From: a virus | Length of the DNA: 64,000 bases | Strand: one strand, 5' to 3' | Virus record (IMG/VR): IMGVR_UViG_3300042448_000646 | Location: 1 to 64,000 of that record | In this document: positions 5,601 through 20,110 of the stretch, piece by piece | Position numbering within the stretch: position 1 is the first letter of the stretch | How the letters are laid out: each line of letters starts with the position of its first letter | Notes under the pieces: generated by a model | Seen by the model: the letters and a program-made list of their open reading frames with translations, nothing else | Databases searched by the model: none | What the model was told of the DNA's origin: nothing | Made by a program: the position numbers and the translations under genes

Positions 5601-8600
5601 TTAGCATTCCATTGGGGGGGTGTTGTTGCTTCTAGTATCATGATGGAATCTAGTGGTAGAATGGCTATTAGAAATAACCCAGGGGGATCGTATGAAAACT
5701 TTATAGCAGCTGTAATTTACTCTTCTGGTTATGGAGATTCCACACAATGGAATACAGCTTATGGGTGGGGAAATCATGCAAGTGCTGGCTATCAAGCTGC
5801 TTCAACTGCAATTACTACAAGTAATATAGGTTCACAATCTGTAAGTTATGCTACTACATCGGGTGCGTTAACTTCAATGAACATCTCTCAATTCACAAAT
5901 AACTCTGGTTATATTACAGGATATACAGAAACAGATACATTGGCTACTGTTACTGGAAGAGGATCTACTACAAGTTCTTCTATTACTGCAGAAAGATATA
6001 GAGGTAATAACAGTTTAATTCTTAATAGTTTTACAACAGTTAACCCTTCTTCAAACGTATTTTTATACAGTCAACCAAACGATAGAGACTCTTGGATTTA
6101 TCTAGATAGTGCAGACACTGGTTCAAACTGGGGTATTTACCATAGGCAAATTGATTCTGCTGTTGGTGGTATGGAAGGTAATTCAATTGGTTTTATTGGA
6201 GGTGGAGCAAATGGATTACGAGCATATATTGGTCTTAGCACAGGTAATGGATATTTTGCAGGAACATTGTCTGCATCAAATTTAAGTGGTACAAATACAG
6301 GTGACCAGACAAATATTAGCGGTAATGCTGCTACTGCTACTTATGCCACTACAGCAGGTTCTGCTCCAGCTAATGGAGGTAACTCCTCTACTGTAGGAGG
6401 ATATAGTGTATCTGTAGGAGCTAGTGCTAATACTATTCCTACTAGAAATGGAAGTGGTTATTTAATTCCTGAAAGTTGGATTCAACTTAATGGTATTTAT
6501 GGATTATACTCTCCAACAAATGGTGCTCATTTAAGACCTAATGATGGAAGTTATGGTCCCTGGCTAGTTACTGGCACTAGAAATGGATGGAACGGAATTG
6601 AGTTTAATGCATCAAATGGAAACGTATCATTGATGGTAAATCCAACCTCTAACACAACTGGATTTCACAACAACGCCTATGGATGGCAGTTCTATTGGGA
6701 AAGTGGTACATTATATTGTCACAAAAATGCATATGGCGCTGGAGCTCAAGCAACTGTACTAGACTCATCTAACTATTCTTCTTGGGCTCAACCAATTGCA
6801 TCTGCAATTAATACAGGTAACATTGGGTCTCAGTCAGTAAGTAATGCATCCACAGCAGGAGGATTAGCTGTTCATAGTAGTAGAAATAACGAAGCAAATA
6901 AAATTGTTAGAACTGATGCAAATGGATATATTCAAGCAGGATGGATTAATACTCCTTCTGGAGTATTCTCTTCTGCTATAACCAAGATATATTGTTCGGA
7001 TGATGACTATGTAAGATTTCAAACACCTGCTACTTTTATTTCTAATTTAGGATTAATTACTACTTCTAATATTGGAAGTCAATCCGTGTCTTACGCAACA
7101 ACAGCAGGTACAGCAAATGCAGTAGCATGGGGTAATGTATCAAGTAAACCGTCTTATGTAATGTATTATCAAGGATTTACTCTTGATGCTAATACAATGG
7201 ACGCTAACTCTACAGGATTTACATATTCAGTAAATGCTCCATATACAGGACCTATTGCTAGATTTAGTGAACCAGGATACTCATTACAACTTAACGCTGC
7301 CTATAGTGGTAGTGGAACAGGTATTGCCTTTAGAACAAGAAATGGCGATGCTGGTTCATTTAACCCTTGGAGAGTACTACTTAACGATGCAAACTATACA
7401 GCTTACTCTCCGTCTCTTGCAGGAACAGGTGCTTCAGGAACTTGGAGCATTAGTGTTACTGGATCTGCTGGATCAGTAGCATGGACTAACGTAAGTTCTC
7501 GTCCTACTGCCTTGTCTCAATTTACAAACGATCTAGGTAACTATGGAGGATTTTTAACTTCTATTACTGCACATACTCACGCTATATCAGATGTAACAGG
7601 ATTACAAACAGCTCTTGATAGTAAGCAGGCTTCTCTTGGATTTACCCCATACAATAGTACAAATCCTAGTGGGTATATTACAGGTATTTCATTTGCAAAC
7701 GTTTCATCTAAGCCAACTACAATTAGTGGTTATGGAATTACAGATGCAATTACAACTGCTAACATTGGAAGCCAATCAGTAACTAATTCAGCTCAGCTTA
7801 ATGGCTTGAGCAAAATACAACTTTGGAATAACAGTGGACAAGGACATAGCACGTATCAAACATTTGGAGCAATTCCAAACTTTGGTGTTTGGTTTATGCA
7901 AGGCTCTACTGCTAACGATACTCCACAATCAGGTTCTCAATACTATGTACAGACACAAGGTCTAGGCAATGATTATGCATATGGTACTTATGGATTAATG
8001 ACTGCTGTAGCAAGAGATCATGCTCGTAAGTATACTTATTATAGAACACAAGAAGGTGGTAGTTGGGGAAGTTGGACAAAAGCAGCTGCTGGATATGCTG
8101 ATGAAGCAGGTGTTTTAACTAGCATGAACATTTCTCAGTTTACGAATAACTCTGGTTATATTACAGGAATTAACTCAGGTAACGTAACCACAGCATTAGG
8201 CTTTACTCCGTACAATGCTACAAACCCAAGTGGTTATATTACATCAAGTGCTAGTATCTCAGGAACAGCTAGTAACATTACAGCATACACCATTAACCAG
8301 AGTGTAGGTACAGGTAACTCTCCTACTTTTGCTGGCTTAGCTAATACAGGAGGTTGGTACTCTTATAATGATGACGACAGAAATCCAGGTAGTGCAAATC
8401 ACTATCCTACAACATCAGCTAGATCATTTAGATTTTCATTTGTAGGAGCAGGAAGTGTAGGTGCTGTAGGTAACTATGCAGGTTTATTACAATTTAATCC
8501 TTGGGATGGCACAACTTCCTCTACAGGAGATTCTTCTTATCAGTTAGCATTTGTTAATCAAACAGGTGTTAATGGTTCTGGAAATCCTGGCTTAAGATTA

Positions 8601-9968
8601 AGAAAAGGTATTGATAGTACTTGGGGAGCTTTTTGTGATATTTTAACTTCAGTTAATTACACAAGTTATTCTCCTACACTAACGGGTACTGGGGCAAGTG
8701 GTACATGGAGTATTTCGGTATCAGGTAATGCAGCAACAGCCACCAACGTGGCTTATTCAGGATTAACTGGAACAGTTCCTACTTGGAATCAGAATACTAC
8801 GGGTAGCGCTGCCACTGTAGGTGGATATGCTCCTTCTGGTAGTGTAGGTGCAAACACAGTGGTTATTAGAGATGCTAACAACTACATCTATGCTCATTAC
8901 ATTAACTCAAACGTATCTGAAACAGAGAACCCAACTATCAACTCATTCTATACAAGTAATGGAGATGGATGGTTAAGGAAGTCTAGTGTTGCTCACGTTA
9001 AGTCTCAATTAGGATTAGGGTCTATGGCCTATGAATCTAGTGGTACTTATCAAACTGTATCTGGAGCAATTAATACAGGAAACATCGCTAGCCAATCTGT
9101 AAGTTACGCTACAGTATCACAACAGCTTACTAAGTTTGGAGATATCTATGGTCAAGATTGGAATAGCTATTTTATTACTGCTAAGTTAATTGTATCTAAT
9201 GCATTAGGTCACACTGGAGCTAATAGACCTAGTGATTCTTATGGTTATGGTACTGTTTTATCTTATGGTGAAACTGGAGGTCCTTTGATGCAAATGTACT
9301 TCCCTGAAGATGTTGCTAATACTGGAGGTGCATACAGAGCTTTGGCTTATAGATCTGGATATAATGGTAGCTGGAGTGCTTGGAAAACTGTAGTAAACCA
9401 AGTAGGTAATACTTGTACTGTTGCTGGAAGTAATGGAACAGGTTTACAAGTTCACTCTAACGTAGGGTATAACCAAAATCCTTTAACCTACTTCTTACTG
9501 AGAGGTCAAGCAGATTCTAGTTGGAAAACATTTAAGATACTTCTTACTGGAGATGCAGGAGGACAAGACATTGAGTTTAGACGTATTGCAGAGAATTCTA
9601 CAGATGCAAGAATGTTCTACGTTCCAAGAGGCTTAAACCAAGTAATCTTTGACTACACAGTTGTTCAGCCTTCAGATTCTAGACTTAAGGATAACCTCAC
9701 TCTTATCACTACTCCTGTAGATAAGATTAAATCTCTACGTGGTGTAGAGTTTGATTGGAACTCAGGTGAGCACGTAGGCACACATGATGTAGGTCTTATT
9801 GCTCAAGATGTTGAGGCAGTACTTCCAGAAGCAGTTACTACCCAAGAAGATGGATATAAGAACTTGGCTTACACCAAAGTTATCCCTCTATTGGTAGAAG
9901 CAATGAAAGAACAACAAACAATGATCGAGGCTTTAAGGGCTGAGATAGAACTATTAAAAAACAAGTAA
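2658..9968 (+). CDS. Giant mosaic tail fibre (2436 aa) with a CBM-like domain and C-terminal S74-type chaperone
   Basis: G/S/T/N-rich with repeated modules (RAPIFYDS..YYLDPN, WNTAYGWGNHASAGY, ITTSNIGSQSV, LGFTPYNxxNPSGYIT). A CBM-like segment ENLLSNG...PVNPEKRYRLDFWAR lies at ~3585-4400. The C-terminus reads SDSRLKDNL...LRGVEFDW...GLIAQDVEAVLPEAV...LLVEAMKEQQ. Confidence 0.9.
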   Translation: MANLLINTTVGGNAVITTSNIGSYALTSIPATIGPTNINIGNAIYFGGGNNYLNWDGARINSNVGIQSTSDMRAPIFYDSADTSYYLDPNGNSVLTTATFNVNASSIITLTSAGTNASMIKAGAGDELYIGGNNTWQMRFSGANVLMDNGGYLQNNESLRAPIFYDSNDTGYYLDPNGLSVLSHIRLNNNWANAGINQGAINIRGQYPSMQFRNTVSDSMWLRHMDASGTIQHYYASDGVDSSNWSIKHSMFGNGNFSSVGTHTASQFIGSGAGLTGTASSLSVNYATGAGALGGYSLDTMKKYIWSRGENLLSNGTGLMGNNTNFTSFTFDGSQAYFSSGSFRYTGQYQAPNTDELMPVNPEKRYRLDFWARTTNGQGAYYAYLNFFDVDGNTITAVTHMYYANTLTTLAQTLNPGDTVVYLTSAANWENGGTAGVSTHIRSFIFWNYVNSFGYAYPPETYSQNWYGGRWDPGAVNYATNTITLISPWNGPSIASGTKLSNGSAGGTYKYIALGYTIVPTTWTNYVGIMDGVDYSGTNAGGKFPPGTASAKLGFLTDYNASGDTIFLANLFVGVDTDYPIYDKTIGNTKIEKSGAFYGTIFYDSNNTSYYLDPNSTSNLYRVDAASQMRAPIFYDSQDTNYYLDPNSTSRLVTVNADTLRSYSNVYTDGNYGNGLVGLYSAERYQGVFAMGDSYKLAANGTTTGNLYGIAWTHTNVGGQSKSGLGHQALFMDNGVTQTAIGSGIWTSGLITTTSYGTSSNWNTAFGWGNHASAGYLTGITSGQVTGALGYTPYNSSNPSGYITSSGSISGSAGSVTNGVYTNVTNTIVNGDAAALIVYGASSYNAAAALHLGGWSTDTTYARIRTSNGNLHIDTRGGAGNVYQMYFNHYSSGDMYFGNGGGTVYIYGGRLKHSNNTDYVYNSGTWSINVTGSSGSAGNATNLSGLGTIQSTSTGTSYTTNYQVRENSGGSGNTNEIYAPQLAFHWGGVVASSIMMESSGRMAIRNNPGGSYENFIAAVIYSSGYGDSTQWNTAYGWGNHASAGYQAASTAITTSNIGSQSVSYATTSGALTSMNISQFTNNSGYITGYTETDTLATVTGRGSTTSSSITAERYRGNNSLILNSFTTVNPSSNVFLYSQPNDRDSWIYLDSADTGSNWGIYHRQIDSAVGGMEGNSIGFIGGGANGLRAYIGLSTGNGYFAGTLSASNLSGTNTGDQTNISGNAATATYATTAGSAPANGGNSSTVGGYSVSVGASANTIPTRNGSGYLIPESWIQLNGIYGLYSPTNGAHLRPNDGSYGPWLVTGTRNGWNGIEFNASNGNVSLMVNPTSNTTGFHNNAYGWQFYWESGTLYCHKNAYGAGAQATVLDSSNYSSWAQPIASAINTGNIGSQSVSNASTAGGLAVHSSRNNEANKIVRTDANGYIQAGWINTPSGVFSSAITKIYCSDDDYVRFQTPATFISNLGLITTSNIGSQSVSYATTAGTANAVAWGNVSSKPSYVMYYQGFTLDANTMDANSTGFTYSVNAPYTGPIARFSEPGYSLQLNAAYSGSGTGIAFRTRNGDAGSFNPWRVLLNDANYTAYSPSLAGTGASGTWSISVTGSAGSVAWTNVSSRPTALSQFTNDLGNYGGFLTSITAHTHAISDVTGLQTALDSKQASLGFTPYNSTNPSGYITGISFANVSSKPTTISGYGITDAITTANIGSQSVTNSAQLNGLSKIQLWNNSGQGHSTYQTFGAIPNFGVWFMQGSTANDTPQSGSQYYVQTQGLGNDYAYGTYGLMTAVARDHARKYTYYRTQEGGSWGSWTKAAAGYADEAGVLTSMNISQFTNNSGYITGINSGNVTTALGFTPYNATNPSGYITSSASISGTASNITAYTINQSVGTGNSPTFAGLANTGGWYSYNDDDRNPGSANHYPTTSARSFRFSFVGAGSVGAVGNYAGLLQFNPWDGTTSSTGDSSYQLAFVNQTGVNGSGNPGLRLRKGIDSTWGAFCDILTSVNYTSYSPTLTGTGASGTWSISVSGNAATATNVAYSGLTGTVPTWNQNTTGSAATVGGYAPSGSVGANTVVIRDANNYIYAHYINSNVSETENPTINSFYTSNGDGWLRKSSVAHVKSQLGLGSMAYESSGTYQTVSGAINTGNIASQSVSYATVSQQLTKFGDIYGQDWNSYFITAKLIVSNALGHTGANRPSDSYGYGTVLSYGETGGPLMQMYFPEDVANTGGAYRALAYRSGYNGSWSAWKTVVNQVGNTCTVAGSNGTGLQVHSNVGYNQNPLTYFLLRGQADSSWKTFKILLTGDAGGQDIEFRRIAENSTDARMFYVPRGLNQVIFDYTVVQPSDSRLKDNLTLITTPVDKIKSLRGVEFDWNSGEHVGTHDVGLIAQDVEAVLPEAVTTQEDGYKNLAYTKVIPLLVEAMKEQQTMIEALRAEIELLKNK

Positions 9969-10600: not shown

Positions 10601-10900
10601 ATGGCAACTAAGTTAAACGAACAAGAAGTAGAGGCAATTAAAGGCTTCCAACAAAAAACTCAAAACGTAATTATGGATTTGGGTAAGATTGAACTCCAAA
10701 TGAATGACTTGCTTTCTGTAAAAGAGAAGGTAAAAGAAGCAATGGCTGAAGTAGTAAAAGAACAGAATGAGTTCTTCCAATCTATTGAAGCTAACTATGG
10801 TAAAGGTCAAATTAATTTGGATACCTTTGAGCACATTGCTGCTGAAGCTCCTGCATCAGAAACCCCTGTGGTTCCTTTTACTAAGGCAGAAGTATTGTAA
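10601..10900 (+). CDS. Small coiled-coil protein
   Basis: The ATG at 10601 (MATKLNEQE) is preferred over the TTG at 10574, which lies inside the promoter. Heptad-like helix followed by YGKGQINLDT. Confidence 0.65.
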   Translation: MATKLNEQEVEAIKGFQQKTQNVIMDLGKIELQMNDLLSVKEKVKEAMAEVVKEQNEFFQSIEANYGKGQINLDTFEHIAAEAPASETPVVPFTKAEVL

Positions 10901-10920
10901 TAATAACTATTACGCAACGG

Positions 10921-10953
10921 AAACCCTCAGAGAAATCTGGGGGTTTTTTATTT
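10921..10953 (+). terminator. Intrinsic terminator
   Basis: AAACCCTCAGA-GAAA-TCTGGGGGTTT stem with a GNRA loop and T-rich tail. Confidence 0.8.
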
Positions 10954-10966
10954 AACTAATAACTAC

Positions 10967-10996
10967 TTGACTTATTTTTTCAAAAGTTTATTTTTG
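10967..10996 (+). promoter_or_regulatory. Bacteroidota promoter for the lysis and envelope-cassette operon
   Basis: TTGAC-17-TATTTTTG just downstream of the terminator and 20 nt before the ATG at 11017. Confidence 0.6.
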
Positions 10997-11016
10997 TTGG
11001 CAAACAAACTATACCT

Positions 11017-11289
11017 ATGAAATTACTAAACTTTATTGGAGGCCTTTTCAAAGACGAAAAGGGTAATGTCTCTATGAAACGTTTGTGCGGCTTATTTTGC
11101 ACATTGACTCTGTGTGCAACTTTGTACGCCAACTCATTTACTGAAGCTCACTTTGCTCCTTCTGTTCCTTTGGTGGATGCAGTTGCTTTGTTGGCTTTTG
11201 GTTGTTTAGGTTTGACTTCTGTTGAGAAGATCATGAAGAAACCTGAATCCTCTAACTCTTCTGAAACTACTGAAACTACTGAATCTTAA
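11017..11289 (+). CDS. Putative holin (2 TM segments)
   Basis: SMKRL followed by two hydrophobic stretches and a charged tail. It lies immediately upstream of the lysin candidate. Confidence 0.6.
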   Translation: MKLLNFIGGLFKDEKGNVSMKRLCGLFCTLTLCATLYANSFTEAHFAPSVPLVDAVALLAFGCLGLTSVEKIMKKPESSNSSETTETTES

Positions 11290-11291
11290 TT

Positions 11292-11930
11292 ATGGCATAT
11301 ACTAAAGAACAAATCGAAGCCGCTGTTAAAGCCAAAGGATACGTTTGGTTTGAAGGCGAAAAAGGTTACGACCTAAACATTGTAGGCGTACGTAACTCCT
11401 CTACTGGAAATGATGTAACTAACTTGTTTGATGACAAGATTACACTTTCTTACAAAGTAGATGGTAAATGGATGTTTCACGAATGGCAGGCTACTACTGA
11501 CCCAGGTACTAAAGGTGTAAAGGAATTTCACAACGCAGCAGGTGTTGCTCGTTTGGTTCCTAATCAATATCGTGGTTCTCACGTGATTGGTTTACACCAA
11601 GGTAAGTATGAAGCTTTGAAGCAAGCCAAGAATGTAAAAGTGTATCGTGATGCTAACAAGGATATGACTTATGACGAAAAAACCATTACTGAAGGTATTT
11701 ACGGCATTAACATCCACAAAGCTGGTGCAGATTCTAATTTTGTAGAAAACTGGAGCGAAGGATGTCAAGTGTTCAAACGTGAACGTGACTTTAATGAGTT
11801 CATGGACCTTGCTCGTAAGTCTAGATTAATTTACGGAAACTCTTTTACTTACACTTTGCTTGAATCTGGTGACTTTATTGTTGCTGATAAAGTTGCAGGT
11901 GAAGCTAAAAAAGCCGCAAAGAAAAAATAA
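11292..11930 (+). CDS. Putative endolysin with an L,D-transpeptidase (YkuD)-like His/Cys motif
   Basis: GINIHKAG...NWSEGCQVF resembles the YkuD H-x(14-17)-SxGC motif. No signal peptide; adjacent to the holin candidate. Confidence 0.6.
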   Translation: MAYTKEQIEAAVKAKGYVWFEGEKGYDLNIVGVRNSSTGNDVTNLFDDKITLSYKVDGKWMFHEWQATTDPGTKGVKEFHNAAGVARLVPNQYRGSHVIGLHQGKYEALKQAKNVKVYRDANKDMTYDEKTITEGIYGINIHKAGADSNFVENWSEGCQVFKRERDFNEFMDLARKSRLIYGNSFTYTLLESGDFIVADKVAGEAKKAAKKK

Positions 11931-12388
11931 TGAAAAATTGGAAGACACTTTGTGGTCTTCTATTCTTAGTCAACTCTTGCTTTTGTCAAACAATTTCAAA
12001 AGCAGGAGATGGCTGGGATACAAAGATTGATTCTGCAATACAGATAATTAAAAAGTACGACTACGATAAGTATGTTGTCTTTAAAGAAGTCTGTCAGCGA
12101 GTTGATTTTTGGAAAAGTTCTTTCTCTTCCACAAGTGTAGTTGAAGGAGACTACACTATACTTATAGCAGATGCAGACATTAAGTTAAACTCAATCAATA
12201 ACTTAGCATGCATTCTAGTTCATGAAAGTCAACATCTTGTGTACATAATGCAGGACAGTAATATGAGTGAACACGAGGAAGAGTTTAAATGCTATATGTA
12301 CGAATTATCCTTTCTTCAAAACATCCCAACCCCCGAGCCTTGGTTACTGGCAAACATTTATGAAAAAATACACAAATATAAACAATGA
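11930..12388 (+). CDS. Exported zincin-like metallopeptidase (HExxH)
   Basis: N-terminal hydrophobic signal, ILVHESQHL and a downstream EEEFKCY. TAATG overlap with the lysin candidate. Confidence 0.55.
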   Translation: MKNWKTLCGLLFLVNSCFCQTISKAGDGWDTKIDSAIQIIKKYDYDKYVVFKEVCQRVDFWKSSFSSTSVVEGDYTILIADADIKLNSINNLACILVHESQHLVYIMQDSNMSEHEEEFKCYMYELSFLQNIPTPEPWLLANIYEKIHKYKQ

Positions 12389-14277
12389 AAAAACTCATTT
12401 TATTTGTAGTCGGGGTGTTGTCTCTTACTACTAGTCTCTTTGCACAAAGTGCAGCTACATCTCCTGGAACAGGGCATTGGGTCGTAATTGACTCAGGTTA
12501 TCAAGTTGCTACTAATACGGTAGGTCAAACGGTAGCTCCTCTCCATTTCTACAACACTTCTACTTCAGAGAAGATTACAGGTATGCAATTTCGTGTATTC
12601 TACGACAAAACAGCTTTTACTGCAGTCGTTCCTTCTCTTAAGATTTCTACTACAGATCAGTATCTTCAGTACGTAGATAGTAACACACAAGGATTCTTAA
12701 CAGTTACCTTGGCTTATACAGGTACTAGTTCTACTTACAACTATTCTAACGGAGCTACATTTGATTTGACTTTCACTCACGCTGCTGAGTCTGTATGGAA
12801 TACTTTAGATTCTATCAAGACTTTAAAAGTATCAGGGGTTAAGTCATTCTCTAACAGAGCTGCTACTAACTGGGGTAACGATACTACTTTGGTAGTTTAC
12901 TCTTATGGTGGACGTTTCAACCAAAAGGTATTGAGATTTGCTACTAAGTTTAAAAACGTAACAGGTACAGATGCTAAGAACTTAACAGTTAGCTTAGAGA
13001 AAAGAGCTAAAGGTTCTTCTACTTGGACTGAAGTTGCTGCACAGAAAACTAACTCTAACGGGGTTACTGTATTCCGTAAGTTCTTAGATACTACTTACTG
13101 GGATGTACGTATTGCAGTTAAGGGAGACACAATGACTCCAGGTAACGTATTTTCTACGGCAGATGCACAGAAGGTTAACCAAGCTATCTTAGGTCAATAC
13201 ACTCCTGCAGGATTTGATTACTACACAATGGATGTAAACGGAACTACTGGTGACATTTCTATTGCTGATGTATACTCTGTGTATGGACGTTTGGCAGGTA
13301 GATTCTCTGCTTGGCCTAACTCAAAGAAAGATGTAATGTTCTTCACAGTTGCTGAATATAATTCAATCAACGGAGCTACCTCGAACCTTACCTCCACATA
13401 CTCTACTATAAATAACTTTACTTACAGTGTAGATGGAAGAGATTCTATCACTTACTATGTAGCTGTTAAAGGAGACGCCAACGCTACAGGATTTAAGATG
13501 GCTCGTTTGACTCCTATTAAAATCATCAACCAGAATAACGCTAAGAACTACATCATTGACAAAACAGTAAGTTACGATGACCCTACTCTTGAGACTATTC
13601 AAATCAATATGCCTAAGGTGAAGGTAGAAGATGGCAACTTGGTAAACGTACCAGTTAAAGTTATAACTAACGGCAAAGACTTAGGAGCACTTCAATTAGA
13701 TCTTAAATACGACACAACTTACTTAGAGTTTAAGAACGTAGAAGTGACTGAAAAGATTATGAAGTGGACTTCTTACACCAATCCTTCTAATGGTATTGTT
13801 TCTTGGGGCGGGGCAGACTTAACCAATTCTAATCTATTAAAAGACGGAGAGGCTGTATTTACACTTCAGTTCATTGCTAAGAAACCCCAAGATTCTTGGG
13901 CTACCGCAGCAATCTGGACATCAGAGAAATACGTAGGAGACAAAGATGCTCGGGACATGAACATCACCCCTACTATGGGCATTATTGAAGTTCGTAGAAA
14001 AGGAACTGTAACATTTAATCAAGTAGAGGAGTTAATTGCTTTCCCTAATCCTAATGAAGGAGCTTTCCAAGTACAGTTTAAGATAGCTGAAGAATCCGAT
14101 GTTAACTTATCCCTCTACAACGAAGTAGGGCAGAAGGTTAAAAATATCCTAGACAAACACATGCCTGTAGGAAACTACAGGTATAGTGTAGACTTAGAAA
14201 GACTCCCTGACGGAGTTTACATCTTAACTTTAAGAACAGAAAAACAAATCCTAGACTCTAAACTATTAATCATATGA
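12385..14277 (+). CDS. Secreted cohesin-like / dockerin-like / cohesin protein with a T9SS type A C-terminal sorting domain
   Basis: Sec signal (MKKLILF...SLFAQ). Cohesin-like ITGMQFRVFYDK. Dockerin-like STADAQKVNQAILG...MDVNGTTGDISIAD. Cohesin VNVPVKV...GALQLDLKYDTTYLEF...VFTLQF. C-terminal domain AFPNPNEG...SLYNEVGQKV...LPDGVYILTL...SKLLII. Confidence 0.8.
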   Translation: MKKLILFVVGVLSLTTSLFAQSAATSPGTGHWVVIDSGYQVATNTVGQTVAPLHFYNTSTSEKITGMQFRVFYDKTAFTAVVPSLKISTTDQYLQYVDSNTQGFLTVTLAYTGTSSTYNYSNGATFDLTFTHAAESVWNTLDSIKTLKVSGVKSFSNRAATNWGNDTTLVVYSYGGRFNQKVLRFATKFKNVTGTDAKNLTVSLEKRAKGSSTWTEVAAQKTNSNGVTVFRKFLDTTYWDVRIAVKGDTMTPGNVFSTADAQKVNQAILGQYTPAGFDYYTMDVNGTTGDISIADVYSVYGRLAGRFSAWPNSKKDVMFFTVAEYNSINGATSNLTSTYSTINNFTYSVDGRDSITYYVAVKGDANATGFKMARLTPIKIINQNNAKNYIIDKTVSYDDPTLETIQINMPKVKVEDGNLVNVPVKVITNGKDLGALQLDLKYDTTYLEFKNVEVTEKIMKWTSYTNPSNGIVSWGGADLTNSNLLKDGEAVFTLQFIAKKPQDSWATAAIWTSEKYVGDKDARDMNITPTMGIIEVRRKGTVTFNQVEELIAFPNPNEGAFQVQFKIAEESDVNLSLYNEVGQKVKNILDKHMPVGNYRYSVDLERLPDGVYILTLRTEKQILDSKLLII

Positions 14278-14621
14278 ACTTAAAAGACAAACTTGGTTTC
14301 GGCCAAGCAGAACCCGTAGTAGTACCAGACAACAATCGTTTCTACTACATGCTACAACAGATGCAAGCTAACCGTTGGAAAATTACTGCCATTGTGTTAG
14401 GTCTATTTACCCTAATCATTGTTGGTATTAATGCTGCTGTCTTCTTAGGAGCATCTATTGGAGAAGACTGGAAAGAAATGTTGCTTATTCTTTTAGGTGC
14501 ATTTGTTGGTAACTTAAACAAAGTAGTTGACTATTGGTTTAACTCTGAAGACAGAGATAAAATGTTAATTCAAAAGGTGGATGAGGAAGATGGTGTATCT
14601 TTGTCAAACACAACTAACTAA
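14274..14621 (+). CDS. Two-TM membrane protein
   Basis: Hydrophobic segments ITAIVLGLFTLIIVGINAAVFLG and MLLILLGAFVG followed by VVDYWF. ATGA overlap with the upstream gene. Confidence 0.7.
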   Translation: MNLKDKLGFGQAEPVVVPDNNRFYYMLQQMQANRWKITAIVLGLFTLIIVGINAAVFLGASIGEDWKEMLLILLGAFVGNLNKVVDYWFNSEDRDKMLIQKVDEEDGVSLSNTTN

Positions 14622-14626
14622 TAATC

Positions 14627-14830
14627 ATGGCTATACCCTGTCCGATGTGCAAAGAACCCCTAGGCTTAGACTTAAAGTTTATCTTAAACAATCCTAAGTC
14701 TGGGTGTCCACACTGCGGCACTATCTTTAATTTCAAAATAAACGAAGAAATAAAAACTTCCTTCTATTCTGCAATTAAAGAAATAGAGAGTGTCAAGAAA
14801 TCGTATGAGGGTACAGTTGAATTTAAATAA
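14627..14830 (+). CDS. Small zinc-ribbon protein
   Basis: CPMC...CPHCG pair. Confidence 0.7.
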   Translation: MAIPCPMCKEPLGLDLKFILNNPKSGCPHCGTIFNFKINEEIKTSFYSAIKEIESVKKSYEGTVEFK

Positions 14831-14852
14831 AAAACAAACTAATATATAAATT

Positions 14853-15443
14853 ATGGCAGATTCAATTGCAGACCAATTTAGAGGACTTCCTATCGAAGAC
14901 CTTATTGTAAGCCCTATTGTCGGAATGGCAAAAGGACAAGCTAAATTAAACGAAGTAACTTGGAGATACATCTCTGAGGTAGCTTTTGAGAAAAAAGGTG
15001 ATGTTAATGTTGCACGCTCTCTTGATGTAGAGATGCAACGTGTATTCACAAACGGAGACACAGGAGTTCAAGAACTTAAGACTGTTTACAGTAAAGTTCC
15101 TATGCTTCCTTTGGTTCCATTGCCTTCTTTGGCAATTACTTCTGCTGACATCAATTTCACTATGGAAGTAAAAACTTCAGACATGACTAAAGAATCTAAT
15201 GATTCTGAAACAGCTTATGAAGTAACTGCAGGTGGCAAATGGTGGGGTATGAGTTTCAATGCTAAGGTATCTGGTAGTGTAAGTGCTCACAAAGAGAACA
15301 CTAGACAGAGTGACAACTCAGCTAAGTATGAAGTAAAAGTACACGCAGAGCAATTACCTCCAACAGAAGGTATGCTTAAATTATCTGATTTTCTTACAGC
15401 AATGTTAGAGCCTTCTTTGGTTCCGTTGACTAAAGAATCTTAA
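14853..15443 (+). CDS. DUF2589-like protein (long form)
   Basis: LPIEDLIVSPIVGMAKGQAKL...KVPMLPLVPLPSLAITSADINFTMEVK...DNSAKYEVKVHAEQLPPTEGMLKL, the pattern I recognise for DUF2589. Confidence 0.75.
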   Translation: MADSIADQFRGLPIEDLIVSPIVGMAKGQAKLNEVTWRYISEVAFEKKGDVNVARSLDVEMQRVFTNGDTGVQELKTVYSKVPMLPLVPLPSLAITSADINFTMEVKTSDMTKESNDSETAYEVTAGGKWWGMSFNAKVSGSVSAHKENTRQSDNSAKYEVKVHAEQLPPTEGMLKLSDFLTAMLEPSLVPLTKES

Positions 15444-15469
15444 TTAGAAAATTTGAGTAGTTTTGTAGT

Positions 15470-15940
15470 ATGGCAAGATTAAACATTGAGGAACTTGTAG
15501 GCGGTCTATTAGAGGCCGCCATGGTTTCTCAGAGTATTAGTGAACGACAACACATTAATGCTCTACGAAATTACTTTAATGAGGACGGTACTCCAAAGGT
15601 TACAAACTTTATGATTGGAGACAAGGAGTTACTAGTGCCTCTTTACATTCTAGCAGATCACTCTTCTATCGGACTAGATGAGTTAGATATAGAGTTTGAA
15701 GCTAGATTAATTTTTGGGGATGAGGAGAAGGAAGTATCCAGTCTTAAGAAGTCTCTACTGGGACTATTTAAGAAGAAGGGGTATGAACACAATATAAAAG
15801 GAATTGAAGTAGACTCAGGAATCAATCCAAGTTCTTCAGGGATGGCTAAGATTAAAGTTAAATTTAAAGCCGATGAAAAGCCTGAAGCCGTGTCTAGAAT
15901 CATTGACTCTTATATACAAGCATTAGGACAAACAAACTAA
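15470..15940 (+). CDS. DUF2589-like protein (short paralogue)
   Basis: IEELVGGL...VPLYILADHSSIGLDELDIEFEARL...KIKVKFKADEKPEAVSRIID; shares the architecture of the upstream gene. Confidence 0.7.
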   Translation: MARLNIEELVGGLLEAAMVSQSISERQHINALRNYFNEDGTPKVTNFMIGDKELLVPLYILADHSSIGLDELDIEFEARLIFGDEEKEVSSLKKSLLGLFKKKGYEHNIKGIEVDSGINPSSSGMAKIKVKFKADEKPEAVSRIIDSYIQALGQTN

Positions 15941-15941
15941 T

Positions 15942-16202
15942 ATGAAAGAAGGATCTATAGGTGAAACATTTTTTGAGAAGCTGAAAGAGCAATCCTTCAC
16001 TATTATATTATTAGTGGGCATCTTGTACTACCAGAACATGAATTTTAAAAGTCAGTTGGAAGAGTACAAAAAGATGATAACTGATAAAGAAACTTTAATC
16101 CTTAAACTTACTGAGGACGAAAGAGCTAGAATGATTGAGCGTAATCAGTACTTAACGGAGCAAAGAGATAAATATGTAGAAGAACTCATAAATAAAAATT
16201 AA
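15942..16202 (+). CDS. Single-TM coiled-coil membrane protein
   Basis: FTIILLVGILYY followed by a charged heptad helix. Confidence 0.65.
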   Translation: MKEGSIGETFFEKLKEQSFTIILLVGILYYQNMNFKSQLEEYKKMITDKETLILKLTEDERARMIERNQYLTEQRDKYVEELINKN

Positions 16203-16206
16203 TACT

Positions 16207-16524
16207 ATGTCAGAAGAAAAAGAAGAAGGCGGTATGTCCGCTATCAAAAAAACCATCATTGGAGCAATCACTACCGCAGTAACTGCAGGTGGTGCTTGGT
16301 TTGCTACTCATTTAGGTGGGGGCGAAGAAAAAGCCGAAGGGCCAGCTGCTGTATCAGCACCTGCACCTGTGATTAACATCACTACGAACAACGAACAGAA
16401 GCAACAAGCAAACACTGGTGGTGGCGGTAAAACCATTATCATCAAAGAAAAGGCTGCACCTGCAGCTGCTCCTGCTCCAGCTCCTGCCGCTAAACCTCAG
16501 CCAGATGAAGAAGATCCTTGGTAA
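16207..16524 (+). CDS. Single-TM protein with Pro/Ala-rich linkers
   Basis: IIGAITTAVTAGGAWFA membrane anchor, AAPAAAPAPAPAAKP linker and acidic EEDPW C-terminus. Confidence 0.7.
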   Translation: MSEEKEEGGMSAIKKTIIGAITTAVTAGGAWFATHLGGGEEKAEGPAAVSAPAPVINITTNNEQKQQANTGGGGKTIIIKEKAAPAAAPAPAPAAKPQPDEEDPW

Positions 16525-17194
16525 TCTGCTATTAGTAATTTTACTATACGGTTGTGGGTCGATGAAGACAACCACCGATAGTGAGGTTATTGAAACAAAA
16601 GACATCTCTACTGTATCTGGTTATACAGATTCAATTAAAAAAACTGTACAGGTAGTAAGTGTAGATATGACTAAAGTACTTTCTTTGTATCCTGCATTAC
16701 AAGAGAAAAACGTAGGTTTAGGTTTTGCAGAATCTGTATTAGACTATCTAGATGAAACAAATCGTTTTGTATTTACTGAGGAGAAGGCTGAAATCAAGGA
16801 GAGGATGGTAACTCAATTCAAAGCTTCTAAAAAAGGAGTATTTGACGAGCCTATTGACGGCAAAGGGAAGATCAAACCTGCTCACTACTTTGTTTATGTA
16901 ACTGTGGCTGATTTTGCCGTAGATGAAGACGAAGCAGTTCAAGGAGGAAAAACTAAAGTAGTAGTAACTACTTTTATCCGACTCCAAGTTCGTTTTGTAG
17001 ATGCCAAGACTGGGCAAATCTACATTGGTTCTGGAGAAGGAGAATCTTTAAAAGTAGGGGAATCATTCTTAAAATCTCTTGATGATATGAAGTTTTCTCA
17101 AAGTACCGTAGGTAAGGCAACACGCAAATCGCTAGAAACAGCATGCACAAAAGTGATTGAAAACCTTATCAAGAACGGTGTCTTTAAGAGTTAA
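16505..17194 (+). CDS. CsgG/HfaB-like lipoprotein
   Basis: Restarted at the ATG at 16505, giving MKKILGNLLLVILLYG-C (lipobox). The core GLGFAESVLDYLDETNRFVFTE...AHYFVYVTVADF...LQVRFVDAKTGQI matches the CsgG-family pattern. Confidence 0.7.
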   Translation: MKKILGNLLLVILLYGCGSMKTTTDSEVIETKDISTVSGYTDSIKKTVQVVSVDMTKVLSLYPALQEKNVGLGFAESVLDYLDETNRFVFTEEKAEIKERMVTQFKASKKGVFDEPIDGKGKIKPAHYFVYVTVADFAVDEDEAVQGGKTKVVVTTFIRLQVRFVDAKTGQIYIGSGEGESLKVGESFLKSLDDMKFSQSTVGKATRKSLETACTKVIENLIKNGVFKS

Positions 17195-18623
17195 CATATT
17201 GTTTTTATTACTAAGTATTGGACTGAGTTTAAAAGCTCAGTCCTTTACTTATAGTTACACAGATCCGTGTACTAAAGAACTAAAGTTCATTAATGCGGAT
17301 ATGAATACGCCTATAATGATTTCTTACTACGGGCAGGTAAGAGCTTTTAGTTACGTTGAACTACAAGATGGTACGTTTGACGCTTGGTTAAGTTCTACTT
17401 TTACAAACTTCAGTACTTCCAAACCTTGTGAGGGGGTACTAACAACAACCACTACAACAACTTCTACCAATACGGTAATGGGTTTAGTAAATAGTGTAAT
17501 GACCTTGAACTCTTTAACGAGTTTAGACTTATCTTCGACATCCCTGGGTTCTGGGACTTCTGTAGGAGGAACAACCACCTCAGGGACATCGGGAGTTAAT
17601 GTAAAGACTAAAAATGGAAAGTCGAACGACAAATCAGATGGTGATGGAAGCAATAGCACTACTGGTGATGTTGGGAATACTTCTAGTTCGGGTGACCAAT
17701 CATCTGGACAAGGATCCGTGGGGTCGGAAGGACAAGTAAATAATGATGGAAGCAACTCAAATAATAACTCTAGCGGCTCTAACAATTCTGGGAGCAGTTC
17801 TGGGAGTAGCTCTGGTTCTTCTTCTGGTAGTAGTGGCAATGGTTCTAATGGAGGCAGCGGTTCTGGCACACCTTCAGATAAAAAGGCTGATGAGAAAACT
17901 CCTGAAAAAGTAGAAGAACAAAAGAGTGAGACTCAGAAAGCAGGAGGTAACTCTACGGCAAAAGCTGCTGCTAAAGGTAAAGTAGAAACTCAGAAGCCAG
18001 CTATCTTAGTCACAGGTGACATAGTAGGAATCCAAACTGCTAAGAGCGACAAGCAAGACGCAAGAGGTACAATGTCTTTTACTAGAGTAAAAGGAGATGG
18101 TACAGCTTCTGTAGGACTGTCTGGAGATTACATGGTTAATGCCAAGATAGGAAACATAGGAGCCATAAAATCTTGGATTGGATCAAACCAAAAAGGAAAC
18201 AAACATATTAACGTACTTTCAGCAGGACTAGGATTGATGCCCAAGTCATTCACTACTTCACTACTCTTTGTCAGAGTAAACTCAATTAAAAATTTCACAG
18301 CTTTGTATGGAGCTGCAGGTTCATATGGTAAACTATTTGAGGAAGAACTAATCTCTACTATGATTATAGGAGGTTTTATGTACAAGGGTCAGATTTCTAA
18401 GCATCTTGATGCTACGATTATTGCTGCTGCCGTGTACGCTCCTTACACTAAATACTACAGCGAGAGTCTATTCCAAAGCAACCCAATTATTGTTCCATTC
18501 CTAAACATAAACTATTCAATCACAAAAACTTTTAAGTTTGGACTTACAGGGGGAGGAACATACATAGCAAACCAAGACATAGTAAACTACCAAATCTTAG
18601 TAGGAGGTAAGCTGAAGATATGA
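17157..18623 (+). CDS. Exported protein with a Ser/Gly-rich linker and a putative C-terminal outer-membrane beta-barrel
   Basis: Signal-like ILFLLLSIGLSLKA-Q (exact start uncertain), a two-Cys N-domain, a long S/G/N linker, then alternating amphipathic strands ending FKFGLTGGGTY...YQILVGGKLKI. Confidence 0.6.
   Translation: MKTLSRTVSLRVNILFLLLSIGLSLKAQSFTYSYTDPCTKELKFINADMNTPIMISYYGQVRAFSYVELQDGTFDAWLSSTFTNFSTSKPCEGVLTTTTTTTSTNTVMGLVNSVMTLNSLTSLDLSSTSLGSGTSVGGTTTSGTSGVNVKTKNGKSNDKSDGDGSNSTTGDVGNTSSSGDQSSGQGSVGSEGQVNNDGSNSNNNSSGSNNSGSSSGSSSGSSSGSSGNGSNGGSGSGTPSDKKADEKTPEKVEEQKSETQKAGGNSTAKAAAKGKVETQKPAILVTGDIVGIQTAKSDKQDARGTMSFTRVKGDGTASVGLSGDYMVNAKIGNIGAIKSWIGSNQKGNKHINVLSAGLGLMPKSFTTSLLFVRVNSIKNFTALYGAAGSYGKLFEEELISTMIIGGFMYKGQISKHLDATIIAAAVYAPYTKYYSESLFQSNPIIVPFLNINYSITKTFKFGLTGGGTYIANQDIVNYQILVGGKLKI
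17640..17872 (+). repeat. Low-complexity Ser/Gly/Asn-coding stretch (SSSG repeats)
   Basis: Encodes SSSGSSSGSSSGSSGNGSNGGSGSG; degenerate at the DNA level. Confidence 0.7.
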
Positions 18624-19603
18624 GATGGGTTATTATTCTATTCTTATTTTCAAGCTCTCTAAGCGCACAGTTTACTTATTCTGGGTATCTTTATAATGCA
18701 AATGGATCTGGAGCAAATAACGTAGCTGTAAAGCTATATAGAAGGACAAACTCTACTATAACAGGATTTACTTCTCAGAGTAATTATAATGGGCACTCTT
18801 ACTATCGTTCTACAGGAACAGCTAACTGGACTACAGCTAAAGCTAACTGTGTTGCTATGGGGGGTTATTTAGTAACAGTTACAAGTTCAGGTGAAAATAG
18901 TTTCTTATTTAATCTTTGGCCTTCTGGTTGGATAGGACTAACAGATGAAGTAACAGAGGGGACTTGGAAATGGGTAACAGGAGAAACTTTTTCTTACACA
19001 AACTGGAACTCAGGAGAACCCAATAACTCAGGTAATGAAGACTATATTCAGTTTGTAAGTGGTGGAAAGTGGAATGACTTAAACAATAGTAGTAGTCTGG
19101 CTTATGTTATAGAGTTTGACTACATAGTAACAACTTCTTCTTGGACACTTTATAAAACTATTTATACTAACTCTTCGGGGTACTATTCTATCTCTGAGAC
19201 TTATGATCCTTCTAAAGAGTACTACATAGAGATAGCTGCCCCTACTAGAGTCCAGGCTTATGCAACTTCAGATATCCAAGGAGTATCTAATACTATACTA
19301 GGAAAGACTACAAGGAACGGCTTGTCCTTTCACATGTATGATGTAAACGATGACGGATTACTTTCAGTAGCAGACAAGTATTATGTGGCTGCAAGAAAAG
19401 CAGGAAGGTTTTCTAAGTGGAGAACAGCTCCTGACGTAAGAATCTTTACTACTGCTCAATACAATGCAATTAAAGCGGCTACTACAAACGTACGTGCAAC
19501 TTATCCTGGAGTTTCCACTCATACAACTTCTACTTTAACTAGTGGAGGAACTTTAAATCTCTACATAATAGCTCCTGGTTATGCTGGAGCAGTAACCTAC
19601 TAA
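18620..19603 (+). CDS. Secreted C-type lectin plus dockerin-like protein
   Basis: Sec signal. C-type lectin domain YNGHSYY...GGYLVTVTSSGEN...WIGLTD...EGTWKWVTGE...NWNSGEPNN...ED...KWNDL. Dockerin-like MYDVNDDGLLSVAD. Confidence 0.85.
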   Translation: MRWVIILFLFSSSLSAQFTYSGYLYNANGSGANNVAVKLYRRTNSTITGFTSQSNYNGHSYYRSTGTANWTTAKANCVAMGGYLVTVTSSGENSFLFNLWPSGWIGLTDEVTEGTWKWVTGETFSYTNWNSGEPNNSGNEDYIQFVSGGKWNDLNNSSSLAYVIEFDYIVTTSSWTLYKTIYTNSSGYYSISETYDPSKEYYIEIAAPTRVQAYATSDIQGVSNTILGKTTRNGLSFHMYDVNDDGLLSVADKYYVAARKAGRFSKWRTAPDVRIFTTAQYNAIKAATTNVRATYPGVSTHTTSTLTSGGTLNLYIIAPGYAGAVTY

Positions 19604-19604
19604 C

Positions 19605-20045
19605 ATGAAAAAGCTCATTATAATTCTACTCACTGCATTTGCAGTTACCCTAAACGCTCAGTGTTATAAAATTGACACTGTTCGCAATCACACGCACTTA
19701 CGTACCATAGCAGGAAGACCTGTTGATTTTGGAGTAGTGGCTACAGCAGAACAATTAATTGTAAACAAGTACTCTTTGTGCGACACAGGCATTAAAGTAG
19801 AGCTAGCAATTAACACAATTGCATTACCTCAAAGGCTTATAAACATTATAGGAATTCAACTATTAAAGAGGGATTATGTAGTCAATATGTCTATTACAGC
19901 TAATAACATTACACATTATTCTAGGAACGTAAAAACTGTATATGTTAATGCAATGTTCTTGACAGTCGAGGAGATTCCTCACAATAAAAAAGCATATTCT
20001 AAGGCAGTAGAGAAGTGTTTAATTGATTTGGTTAAGGAGCTATAG
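19605..20045 (+). CDS. Exported hypothetical protein
   Basis: Signal MKKLIIILLTAFAVTLNA-Q. The C-terminal helix SKAVEKCLIDLVKEL resembles the end of the CsgG-like protein. Confidence 0.65.
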   Translation: MKKLIIILLTAFAVTLNAQCYKIDTVRNHTHLRTIAGRPVDFGVVATAEQLIVNKYSLCDTGIKVELAINTIALPQRLINIIGIQLLKRDYVVNMSITANNITHYSRNVKTVYVNAMFLTVEEIPHNKKAYSKAVEKCLIDLVKEL

Positions 20046-20080
20046 CCCGTATTTACTGCATTCCTTACGTGTAGGTTTAC

Positions 20081-20110
20081 CTTAACTTGCCGTGTTAAGT
20101 TTTTGTTTTA
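20081..20110 (+). terminator. Weak possible terminator closing the cassette
   Basis: CTTAAC-N7-GTTAAG followed by TTTTTGTTTT. Confidence 0.35.

Follow-up and report, generated by a model that had tools for sequence, protein, structure and literature searches.

Exported-protein genes and a nested DUF2589 cassette in a freshwater phage genome: evidence for two separable accessory modules

Genes at the locus

Although Bacteroidota phages abound in lakes, oceans and guts, little is known about how they alter the envelope of their hosts and lyse them. In this study, we analysed the first 64 kb (64,000 nucleotides, hereafter the window) of the IMG/VR virus record IMGVR_UViG_3300042448_000646, which is 121,956 bp long and rated complete. 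The plus strand carries every large gene of the window, and between the tail-fibre and the packaging genes lies a set of twelve genes at 11930-20045 that encodes, among others, a cohesin-bearing scaffold, a lectin, a protein with a CsgG-like fold and a pair of DUF2589 proteins. The first-pass annotation of this DNA had proposed that all twelve genes form a single system. Our comparison of loci indicates that the stretch very probably consists of two separable accessory modules, a four-gene Module D being nested in an eight-gene Module E. Their features are listed below in genome order (T9SS, type IX secretion system; TM, transmembrane; aa, amino acids).

Module E, 11930-14621 and 16207-20045, plus strand: eight exported or membrane proteins, delimited by co-conservation
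sprT152, 11930..12388, plus strand, Module E: small exported HExxH protein with a signal-peptide-like N-terminus
coh630, 12385..14277, plus strand, Module E: scaffold with a predicted signal peptide, a beta-sandwich/dockerin-like module at residues ~211-339, a cohesin at 405-534 and a T9SS type A tail at 553-629
tm115, 14274..14621, plus strand, Module E: predicted inner-membrane protein with a TM-like segment at residues 40-58
Module D, 14622..16199, plus strand: 1,578-bp insertion with zn67 (14627-14830), dufA (14853-15443), dufB (15470-15940) and tm86 (15942-16202)
tm105, 16207..16524, plus strand, Module E: protein with a single TM segment and a Pro/Ala-rich tail, called from the translation and its hydropathy
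lipo228, 16505..17194, plus strand, Module E: predicted CsgG-fold protein, with a lipobox only in this lineage
bb488, 17157..18623, plus strand, Module E: signal peptide, conserved Cys-containing N-domain, long Ser/Gly/Asn-rich linker and conserved C-terminal domain of ~210 aa
lec327, 18620..19603, plus strand, Module E: signal peptide, C-type lectin head at residues 68-163 and conserved beta-sandwich/dockerin-like base
sp146, 19605..20045, plus strand, Module E: small exported protein with a signal-peptide-like N-terminus

The twelve open reading frames (ORFs) are tightly coupled, as the first reading had noted: the endolysin-like gene lys212 ends where sprT152 starts, at 11930, and 4-nt overlaps are found at 12385, 14274 and 18620. 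The earlier count of nine proteins with a signal-peptide-like or TM-like segment was also reproduced (sprT152, coh630, tm115, tm86, tm105, lipo228, bb488, lec327 and sp146), such segments being called by a hydropathy script and by reading N-termini by eye. For zn67, dufA and dufB, the script returned neither a signal peptide nor a TM segment.

Co-occurrence and separation of the two modules

Module E is widespread, relatives of lipo228 being found in at least 523 viral contigs of IMG/VR. Among the best 80 of these contigs, the 61 loci with at least 3 kb of upstream sequence were counted, and they contained coh630, tm105 and lec327 in all 61 cases, bb488 in 60, tm115 in 54, sprT152 in 52 and sp146 in 50; these counts are lineage-biased, as only the best-matching 80 out of at least 523 contigs supplied the loci, and the phage's own lineage is over-represented. 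Within 10 kb, 28 of the 61 loci have a relative of lys212 and 26 one of the neighbouring holin-like gene hol90, and zn67, dufA and dufB are present in only two. A further set of loci was chosen by dufA and comprised the best 80 of 141 IMG/VR contigs with a relative (70-96% identical; contigs of 4-334 kb, many of them short fragments). The trio recurs in this set, with zn67 in 77, dufA in 80 and dufB in 78 loci, and among the Module E genes tm115 was found in 22, lipo228 and tm105 in 21 each, lec327 in 17, bb488 in 13 and coh630 in 8.

A phage nearly identical to that of the window (locus L099, 94-97% identical in the flanking genes) has the order hol-lys-sprT-coh-tm115-tm105-lipo-bb-lec-sp146, without zn67, dufA, dufB and tm86, and DNA alignment of the junction revealed that the stop of tm115 and the start of tm105 are separated in the window by a clean insertion. 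Moreover, one contig in each of the lake-water sequencing runs X1 and X3 joins position 14621 to 16200, so that the 1,578 bases are skipped, and the run with the D-less joint also holds D-containing contigs that show no differences. As Module D is both present and absent within single natural populations, its effect on fitness would be directly testable. Run X1 further contains a second joint, which links 14575 with 16200, and between 14613 and 16206 one contig of this run has 27 other letters; several D-less alleles thus seem to exist.

Module D was also found by itself. A sister phage with the window's backbone (L006, with a TerL 79% identical) combines hol-lys-zn67-dufA-dufB-tm86 with a gene for a small basic membrane protein and lacks the Module E genes. 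In L011 and in a jumbo-phage lineage, D is flanked by the tm genes on one side and the CsgG-like gene on the other, and in L163 and L165 it lies 4-6 kb from E on the opposite strand. Module E itself occurs in at least three backbones, namely this lineage, a record with a TerL 26% identical, and a complete-rated 274-kb phage without a relative of this TerL. The existence of D-only, E-only and D-in-E forms on one backbone therefore suggests that the modules are often neighbours and that neither needs the other. The co-conservation foreseen in the first pass held in part: the cohesin-T9SS protein, the lectin, the CsgG-fold protein, bb488 and the small E genes do recur in unrelated backbones, while the DUF2589 pair is separate from them.

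In the light of these distributions, a single trans-envelope complex of all twelve genes with the DUF2589 pair as inner-membrane partners, as first annotated, is very improbable. It would agree with genes that are contiguous, overlapping and on the same strand, with three lineages in which E encloses the trio, the tm115/tm105 genes lying on one side of it and the CsgG-like gene on the other, and with the presence of lipo228 in 21 of the 80 dufA-chosen loci. However, Module D is missing from 59 of the 61 E loci and from the near-identical L099, is skipped by the lake contigs and thus polymorphic within single samples, exists apart from E in many phages, L006, L012 and L075 among them, and lies on the other strand in L163 and L165, and dufA and dufB have no TM segments.

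The scaffold and its lectin partner

The cohesin and the T9SS tail ascribed to coh630 were both recovered by family searches. Pfam PF00963 (Cohesin) scored 53.7 bits against a cut-off of 24.1 at residues 405-534, and PF18962 (Por_Secre_tail) 41.8 bits against 27 at residues 553-629 of 630, together with TIGR04183 at 38 bits against 23, which was the only NCBIfam match among the proteins of the region. The N-terminus is hydrophobic and ends in ...FAQ, a Sec signal peptide as judged by heuristic only. Orthologues of the scaffold are constant, with lengths of 628-656 aa, and among 23 representatives Por_Secre_tail was found in 23 and Cohesin in 22. The PDB sequence search with coh630 gave no match.

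The lectin assignment of lec327 proved equally sound, Lectin_C (PF00059) scoring 60.4 bits against 22.6 (3.3e-16) at residues 68-163. EPN (or QPD) and WND are the Ca/sugar-site motifs of C-type lectins, and both EPN and WND are present in the lec327 translation. Behind the head, residues 172-295 form a module in common with residues 211-339 of coh630 (37% identity, E 1e-16), with a Ca-loop-like motif. The first-pass annotation had called this module a dockerin, a claim that failed at the family level, since neither coh630 nor lec327 matched Dockerin_1 (PF00404) at E <= 0.1; orthologous modules reached 17.0, 20.2 and 20.2 bits, below the threshold of 22.9. One DxNxDGxxxxxD-type loop and a degenerate earlier segment were read by eye in lec327.

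Across the lectin partners, the signal peptide and the C-terminal base are kept and the head changes. The heads of 30 representatives were Lectin_C in 12, GEVED in 5, Lectin_C with Laminin_G_3 in 3, PA14 in 2 and none recognised in 8. In L002, PA14 replaces the C-type lectin of the window, the N-terminal ~35 and C-terminal ~150 residues being common to both proteins, and the partner in L099 is a 400-aa form with an unrecognised head, although the phage is nearly identical to that of the window. Such a change of head between near-identical phages is the mark that a molecular arms race, or the tuning of host range, leaves behind. When head type was compared with tail-fibre type, the upstream genes were too divergent and the flanks too short to relate them.

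The CsgG-fold protein and the remaining Module E proteins

The description of lipo228 as CsgG-like held for the fold and not for the sequence. The searches used 16508-17194, with the first Met omitted; no match to Pfam PF03783 was obtained at E <= 0.1, and the lipo228 profile searched against PDB sequences gave a single chance-level row (E 0.27). The AlphaFold model, built from 32 sequences with a mean predicted local distance difference test score (pLDDT) of 71.3, has CsgG as its best structural match (Z 12.0, root-mean-square deviation 3.1 A over 159 residues in VIA; Foldseek E 6.6e-6). The top eight VIA rows are all CsgG, with LptE and PelC next at Z ~9, and a language-model look-up returned three virus-only clusters followed by CsgG/LpoB/TolB_N clusters at 0.91-0.93. 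The CsgG fold of lipo228 therefore stands as a model-based assignment.

Among the other Module E proteins, sprT152 contains the HExxH motif and scored 23.7 bits against the SprT-like family PF10263, under the cut-off of 25.6. For bb488, annotated at first as a beta-barrel, no outer-membrane barrel family of Pfam was matched in seven members, the window protein matching none; the few Pfam matches of other members (E 0.007-1) are to unrelated eukaryotic families, and the C-terminal domain has 1,248 database relatives, none of them named. No Pfam or PHROG family was matched by sp146. In the jumbo-phage lineage, Module E adds LCCL domains, two small C-terminal-domain (CTD)-like lipoproteins, a Lectin_C+LCCL protein and a 750-aa protein with Plug and OMP_b-brl_3 domains, of the TonB-dependent-receptor type (L072:12817-15069, also in L069 and L070).

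Module D and the DUF2589 family

Module D encodes a Zn-ribbon protein (zn67), DUF2589-A, DUF2589-B and a small membrane protein (tm86). The identification of a DUF2589 pair was borne out, dufA scoring 106.2 bits (2.8e-30) and dufB 52.2 bits (1.1e-13) against PF11655 with its cut-off of 23. With 196 and 156 aa, the two proteins are the only DUF2589 matches in the 121,956-bp record, and they could not be aligned with each other by BLASTP. The family to which they belong is large and unstudied: 1,003 clusters at E <= 0.001 were found among 1,097 candidates, with 'hypothetical protein' as the sole name, and 50% clustering left 976 representatives. A tblastn search of 50,697 GenBank phage records with dufA gave no match. 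In bacteria, DUF2589 was found in 3 of 301 sampled genomes of the class of Ferrimonas, with 2-3 copies each, and in Ferrimonas the A and B types are adjacent, in an A-B-A row. A scan of genome contigs with the single dufA protein returned only two Ferrimonas loci and one weak match. The neighbours at three bacterial DUF2589 loci are SHOCT, an AI-2E transporter and a Trans_reg_C/TPR regulator.

The dufA model (pLDDT 75.3, above 87 for residues 11-100) consists of a long helix, a sheet and two strands of 16-17 residues around a disordered Ser/Thr-rich loop. A search of BFVD with this model found one unnamed homologue, and neither the dufA sequence nor its profile matched a PDB sequence. A 4,544-aa protein (P0132) has 18 stretches that match dufA residues 134-184 and no DUF2589 match in Pfam, probably a low-complexity artefact.

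Lysin genes directly adjoin the trio in four of ~14 neighbourhood types told apart by eye, namely L006, L012 (GH19), L075 (Phage_lysozyme and a lys212-type lysin) and L078. In the jumbo-phage lineage holin-like genes are adjacent to D, and a natural Amidase_2-DUF2589 fusion was present in one of 18 long homologues scanned. RNA-library contigs from X19 and X20 cover parts of hol/lys, zn67, dufA/dufB, tm86 and bb488, a weak hint of expression of the region, as such libraries can contain DNA, and the absence of contigs from the other parts carries no meaning. Two further neighbourhoods were recorded: in L054:6851-8778, of another phage lineage, tm115 and the DUF2589 trio are closely preceded by GroES-like and GroEL-like genes, read from their translations, and in L075:11236-11643 an S-adenosylmethionine-decarboxylase-like gene lies between the DUF2589 pair and the lys212-type lysin.

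Proposed functions and alternatives

We propose, leaning slightly towards this statement as a whole, that Module E displays variable glycan-binding heads on the envelope of the infected cell and that Module D is a lysis cassette. Taken separately, surface display by E, as predicted from sequence, is an evenly balanced proposition, and a role of D as a lysis accessory acting at the inner membrane is a tentative one, somewhat short of even. A more specific version is rather unlikely in its full detail, in which E would be a virus-encoded cohesin-dockerin display working through the host T9SS, its heads evolving like those of receptor-binding proteins and the cell or its debris binding or hiding glycans, and D would be a new soluble-to-membrane lysis device moving as a 1.6-kb cassette.

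Given the predicted Sec signal peptide and the T9SS type A tail of coh630, the host T9SS would export the scaffold and fix it on the outer surface, with the cohesin exposed. In the second exported protein, the head, predicted to bind glycans, is exchangeable and sits on a conserved dockerin-like base, which is also present in the scaffold. If the base docks on the scaffold, as may be expected, infected cells or outer-membrane debris would display lectins chosen by the phage. A scaffold that is constant and predicted to be anchored, a docking-type module present in both proteins and glycan-binding heads that change fast together suggest variable-lectin display. The CsgG-fold protein, bb488, the two inner-membrane proteins, sp146 and the HExxH protein are fixed partners in the set. 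As the purpose of Module E we rank first the covering or binding of host surface glycans, putatively for receptor masking or for the capture of neighbouring cells, two options that are not separable here. If E indeed displays lectins on infected cells, it would represent a new form of viral control over cell-cell contact or receptor access, and also a natural plug-and-play surface-display system. Module D would take part in lysis, acting on the inner membrane from the cytoplasmic side.

Several observations weigh against these proposals. For Module E, Dockerin_1 never reached the Pfam cut-off and each module shows only one canonical Ca loop; a T9SS tail is missing from the lectin partner, which leaves no explanation for how it would reach the surface; the lipobox of lipo228 is confined to this lineage, a plain signal peptide being found in others; and the long hairpin of lipo228 is acidic at its tip with no evident membrane hairpins, thus a CsgG-type channel is not supported by the model. 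For Module D, no solved fold was matched by the dufA model (the best Foldseek E being 1.6 and the highest Z 4.4 among 48,161 chains), about half of the neighbourhood types have no nearby lysis gene, some neighbourhoods hold ligase, capsid or chaperonin genes, and no recognisable wall hydrolase was found near the three bacterial DUF2589 loci scanned, a small sample. In addition, unrelated inserted genes are common in phage lysis regions.

Other functions of Module E were considered and are each improbable, to different degrees. It might be the outer-membrane step of lysis, replacing spanins in Bacteroidota phages, in which case its inner-membrane proteins, a Pro-rich protein reaching across the periplasm and its outer-membrane parts would break the outer membrane after the wall is cut. 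This is unlikely, yet it would account for the position of E directly after the holin-like and lysin genes, for relatives of these genes within 10 kb of nearly half of the E loci counted, for the failure of Pfam and PHROG searches to recognise a spanin in the window, and for the TM segment and Pro/Ala-rich tail of tm105. It is opposed by the sister phage L006, whose lack of E on the same backbone and with the same lysis genes makes E dispensable for this phage type, and by the swapped lectin heads and the T9SS-anchored cohesin scaffold, which have no obvious role in rupture. Slightly less probable still is nutrient capture, whereby surface glycan-binding proteins, joined in some phages by a TonB-dependent-type protein, would raise the capture of polysaccharides by the infected cell: the heads are carbohydrate-binding domain types and the jumbo-phage E has its 750-aa Plug and OMP_b-brl_3 protein, but the module showed neither a glycoside hydrolase nor a SusD-like gene, the TonB-type protein is not in the window, and the head swap between L099 and the window looks more like recognition of a variable target. 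Least probable is that E proteins are on the virions or act on them after release, for instance as lectins decorating the particle. The location of E between tail-fibre and packaging genes and the resemblance of its variable binding heads to receptor-binding proteins would be consistent with such a role; against it, signal peptides and the T9SS tail lead out of the cytoplasm, where tailed-phage particles assemble, and no structural PHROG matched any E protein.

For Module D, the main rival explanation is an inserted accessory unrelated to lysis, for example a counter-defence factor, or a polymer or cage that assembles itself in the cytoplasm, carried in lysis regions that tolerate insertions, which we consider unlikely but worth weighing closely. 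In other phages D adjoins DNA ligase, thymidylate synthase, capsid or chaperonin genes, the gene order within the trio varies, identity remains at 70-96% across unrelated backbones, the bacterial loci have no lysin, and no PADLOC match was obtained (0 of the 14 proteins of the region), all of which are in line with this explanation. On the other hand, adjacency to lysins in four of ~14 types is far above expectation at 1-2 lysin genes per 100-300 genes, one amidase fusion exists, and small membrane proteins (tm86, tm115, c39) recur alongside.

Relation to known systems

T9SS type A cargo of Bacteroidota includes the gingipains and the Flavobacterium johnsoniae adhesins RemA and SprB. Like such cargo, coh630 has a predicted N-terminal signal peptide and an extreme C-terminal Por_Secre_tail/TIGR04183, and lectin-type adhesion domains are common in this class; unlike it, coh630 is encoded by a virulent-looking phage, has a cohesin and travels with seven fixed partner genes, its export being predicted. 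Cohesin-dockerin pairs are known from cellulosome scaffoldins and, as non-cellulosomal pairs, from many bacteria, and we know of no viral cohesin-dockerin assembly. Module E resembles these assemblies in its anchored cohesin-bearing scaffold and in the varied heads on a shared small Ca-loop module. It differs in a dockerin-like module that is sub-threshold for PF00404 with one clear Ca loop, in heads that are lectins rather than enzymes, and in a binding that is predicted.

The T5 protein Llp and Cor are phage envelope proteins for receptor masking and superinfection exclusion, and they may serve as a working analogy for an envelope protein made by the phage to cover a receptor on the cell surface, although those are single small lipoproteins acting on protein receptors and Module E has eight genes with glycan-binding heads. 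With holin-endolysin-spanin cassettes the locus shares the position of E right after holin-like and lysin genes and the frequent adjacency of D to lysins, whereas none of the proteins of either module gave a match to holin, spanin or disruptin families and the DUF2589 proteins are soluble by sequence. As for Pfam DUF2589 (PF11655), dufA and dufB are members above the cut-off and the A/B adjacency is shared with Ferrimonas, but the family itself is of no known function.

Pelagimyophages and the OM43 phage Melnitz are reported to carry CsgG/CsgF without curli subunits, and 'sibling capture' and lysis control have been proposed as roles of the phage proteins (PMC9004378). Phage CsgG-like genes lacking curli subunits thus have a precedent (PMC9004378), and lipo228 has the modelled fold in common with CsgG. 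Unlike CsgG and the phage CsgG/CsgF pairs, lipo228 has no PF03783 match, no recognised CsgF or CsgE relative, no evident membrane hairpins, different partners and a putative host in the phylum Bacteroidota. A literature search on phage T9SS cargo, phage cohesin/dockerin, crAss-like lysis and DUF2589, with subscription journals and supplements outside its reach, found neither module described, and DUF2589 appeared in two papers, as a list entry in each. It is well supported that Module E is a widespread, undescribed phage envelope module, and alongside it stands Module D, a mobile DUF2589 cassette; the functions of both we infer.

Phage, host and sampling

PHROG matches in the window include tail fibres (179-9968), terminase, portal and major head protein. 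For the TerL, identity is 37% with Leptolyngbya phage Lbo-JY46, ~30% with Cellulophaga phages phi4:1 and phi17:2, and 27-31% with crAss-like phages, and because of these low identities the phage is considered only distantly crAss-like. The T9SS sorting tail, together with signal peptides ending in ...AQ, which we take as a pointer to a Bacteroidota host, point to Bacteroidota as the putative host. At least half of the words of 10900-20100 were present in 17 of 22 listed sequencing runs, with labels of lake water or freshwater. Within the tail-fibre region, a 2,436-aa tail-fibre-like ORF at 2658-9968 has many short-motif repeats (…APIFYDS.DT.YYLDPN…), and its C-terminus matches tail-fibre PHROGs.

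Lysis genes and upstream signals

Three features precede Module E.

Terminator-like hairpin with a T-run (~10924-10950, hairpin read by eye), followed by a promoter-like site upstream of the holin-like gene, 10920..10996, plus strand
hol90, 11017..11289, plus strand: holin-like small membrane protein, by topology only, with two hydrophobic segments and a charged C-terminus
lys212, 11292..11930, plus strand: endolysin-like, matching phrog_3000 (4.1e-33) and phrog_33083 'endolysin' (1e-9)

The single promoter that the first reading placed before these genes did not withstand comparison with shuffled sequence: the sigma-70-like match at 10967-10994 agrees at 9 of 12 positions and is one of 41, against 31.2 +/- 6.7 in shuffles, which is not above chance. 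A TAnnTTTG-type motif, presumably a Bacteroidota -7 element, was read by eye at ~10988-10995, and the hairpin with its T-run is missing from the list of the program scan. No Pfam or PHROG family was matched by hol90, and no Pfam family or PDB sequence by lys212. Homologues of hol90 adjoin lysins in other phages, and the lys212 family (phrog_3000) represents a lysin type not yet characterised, with members in several lineages.

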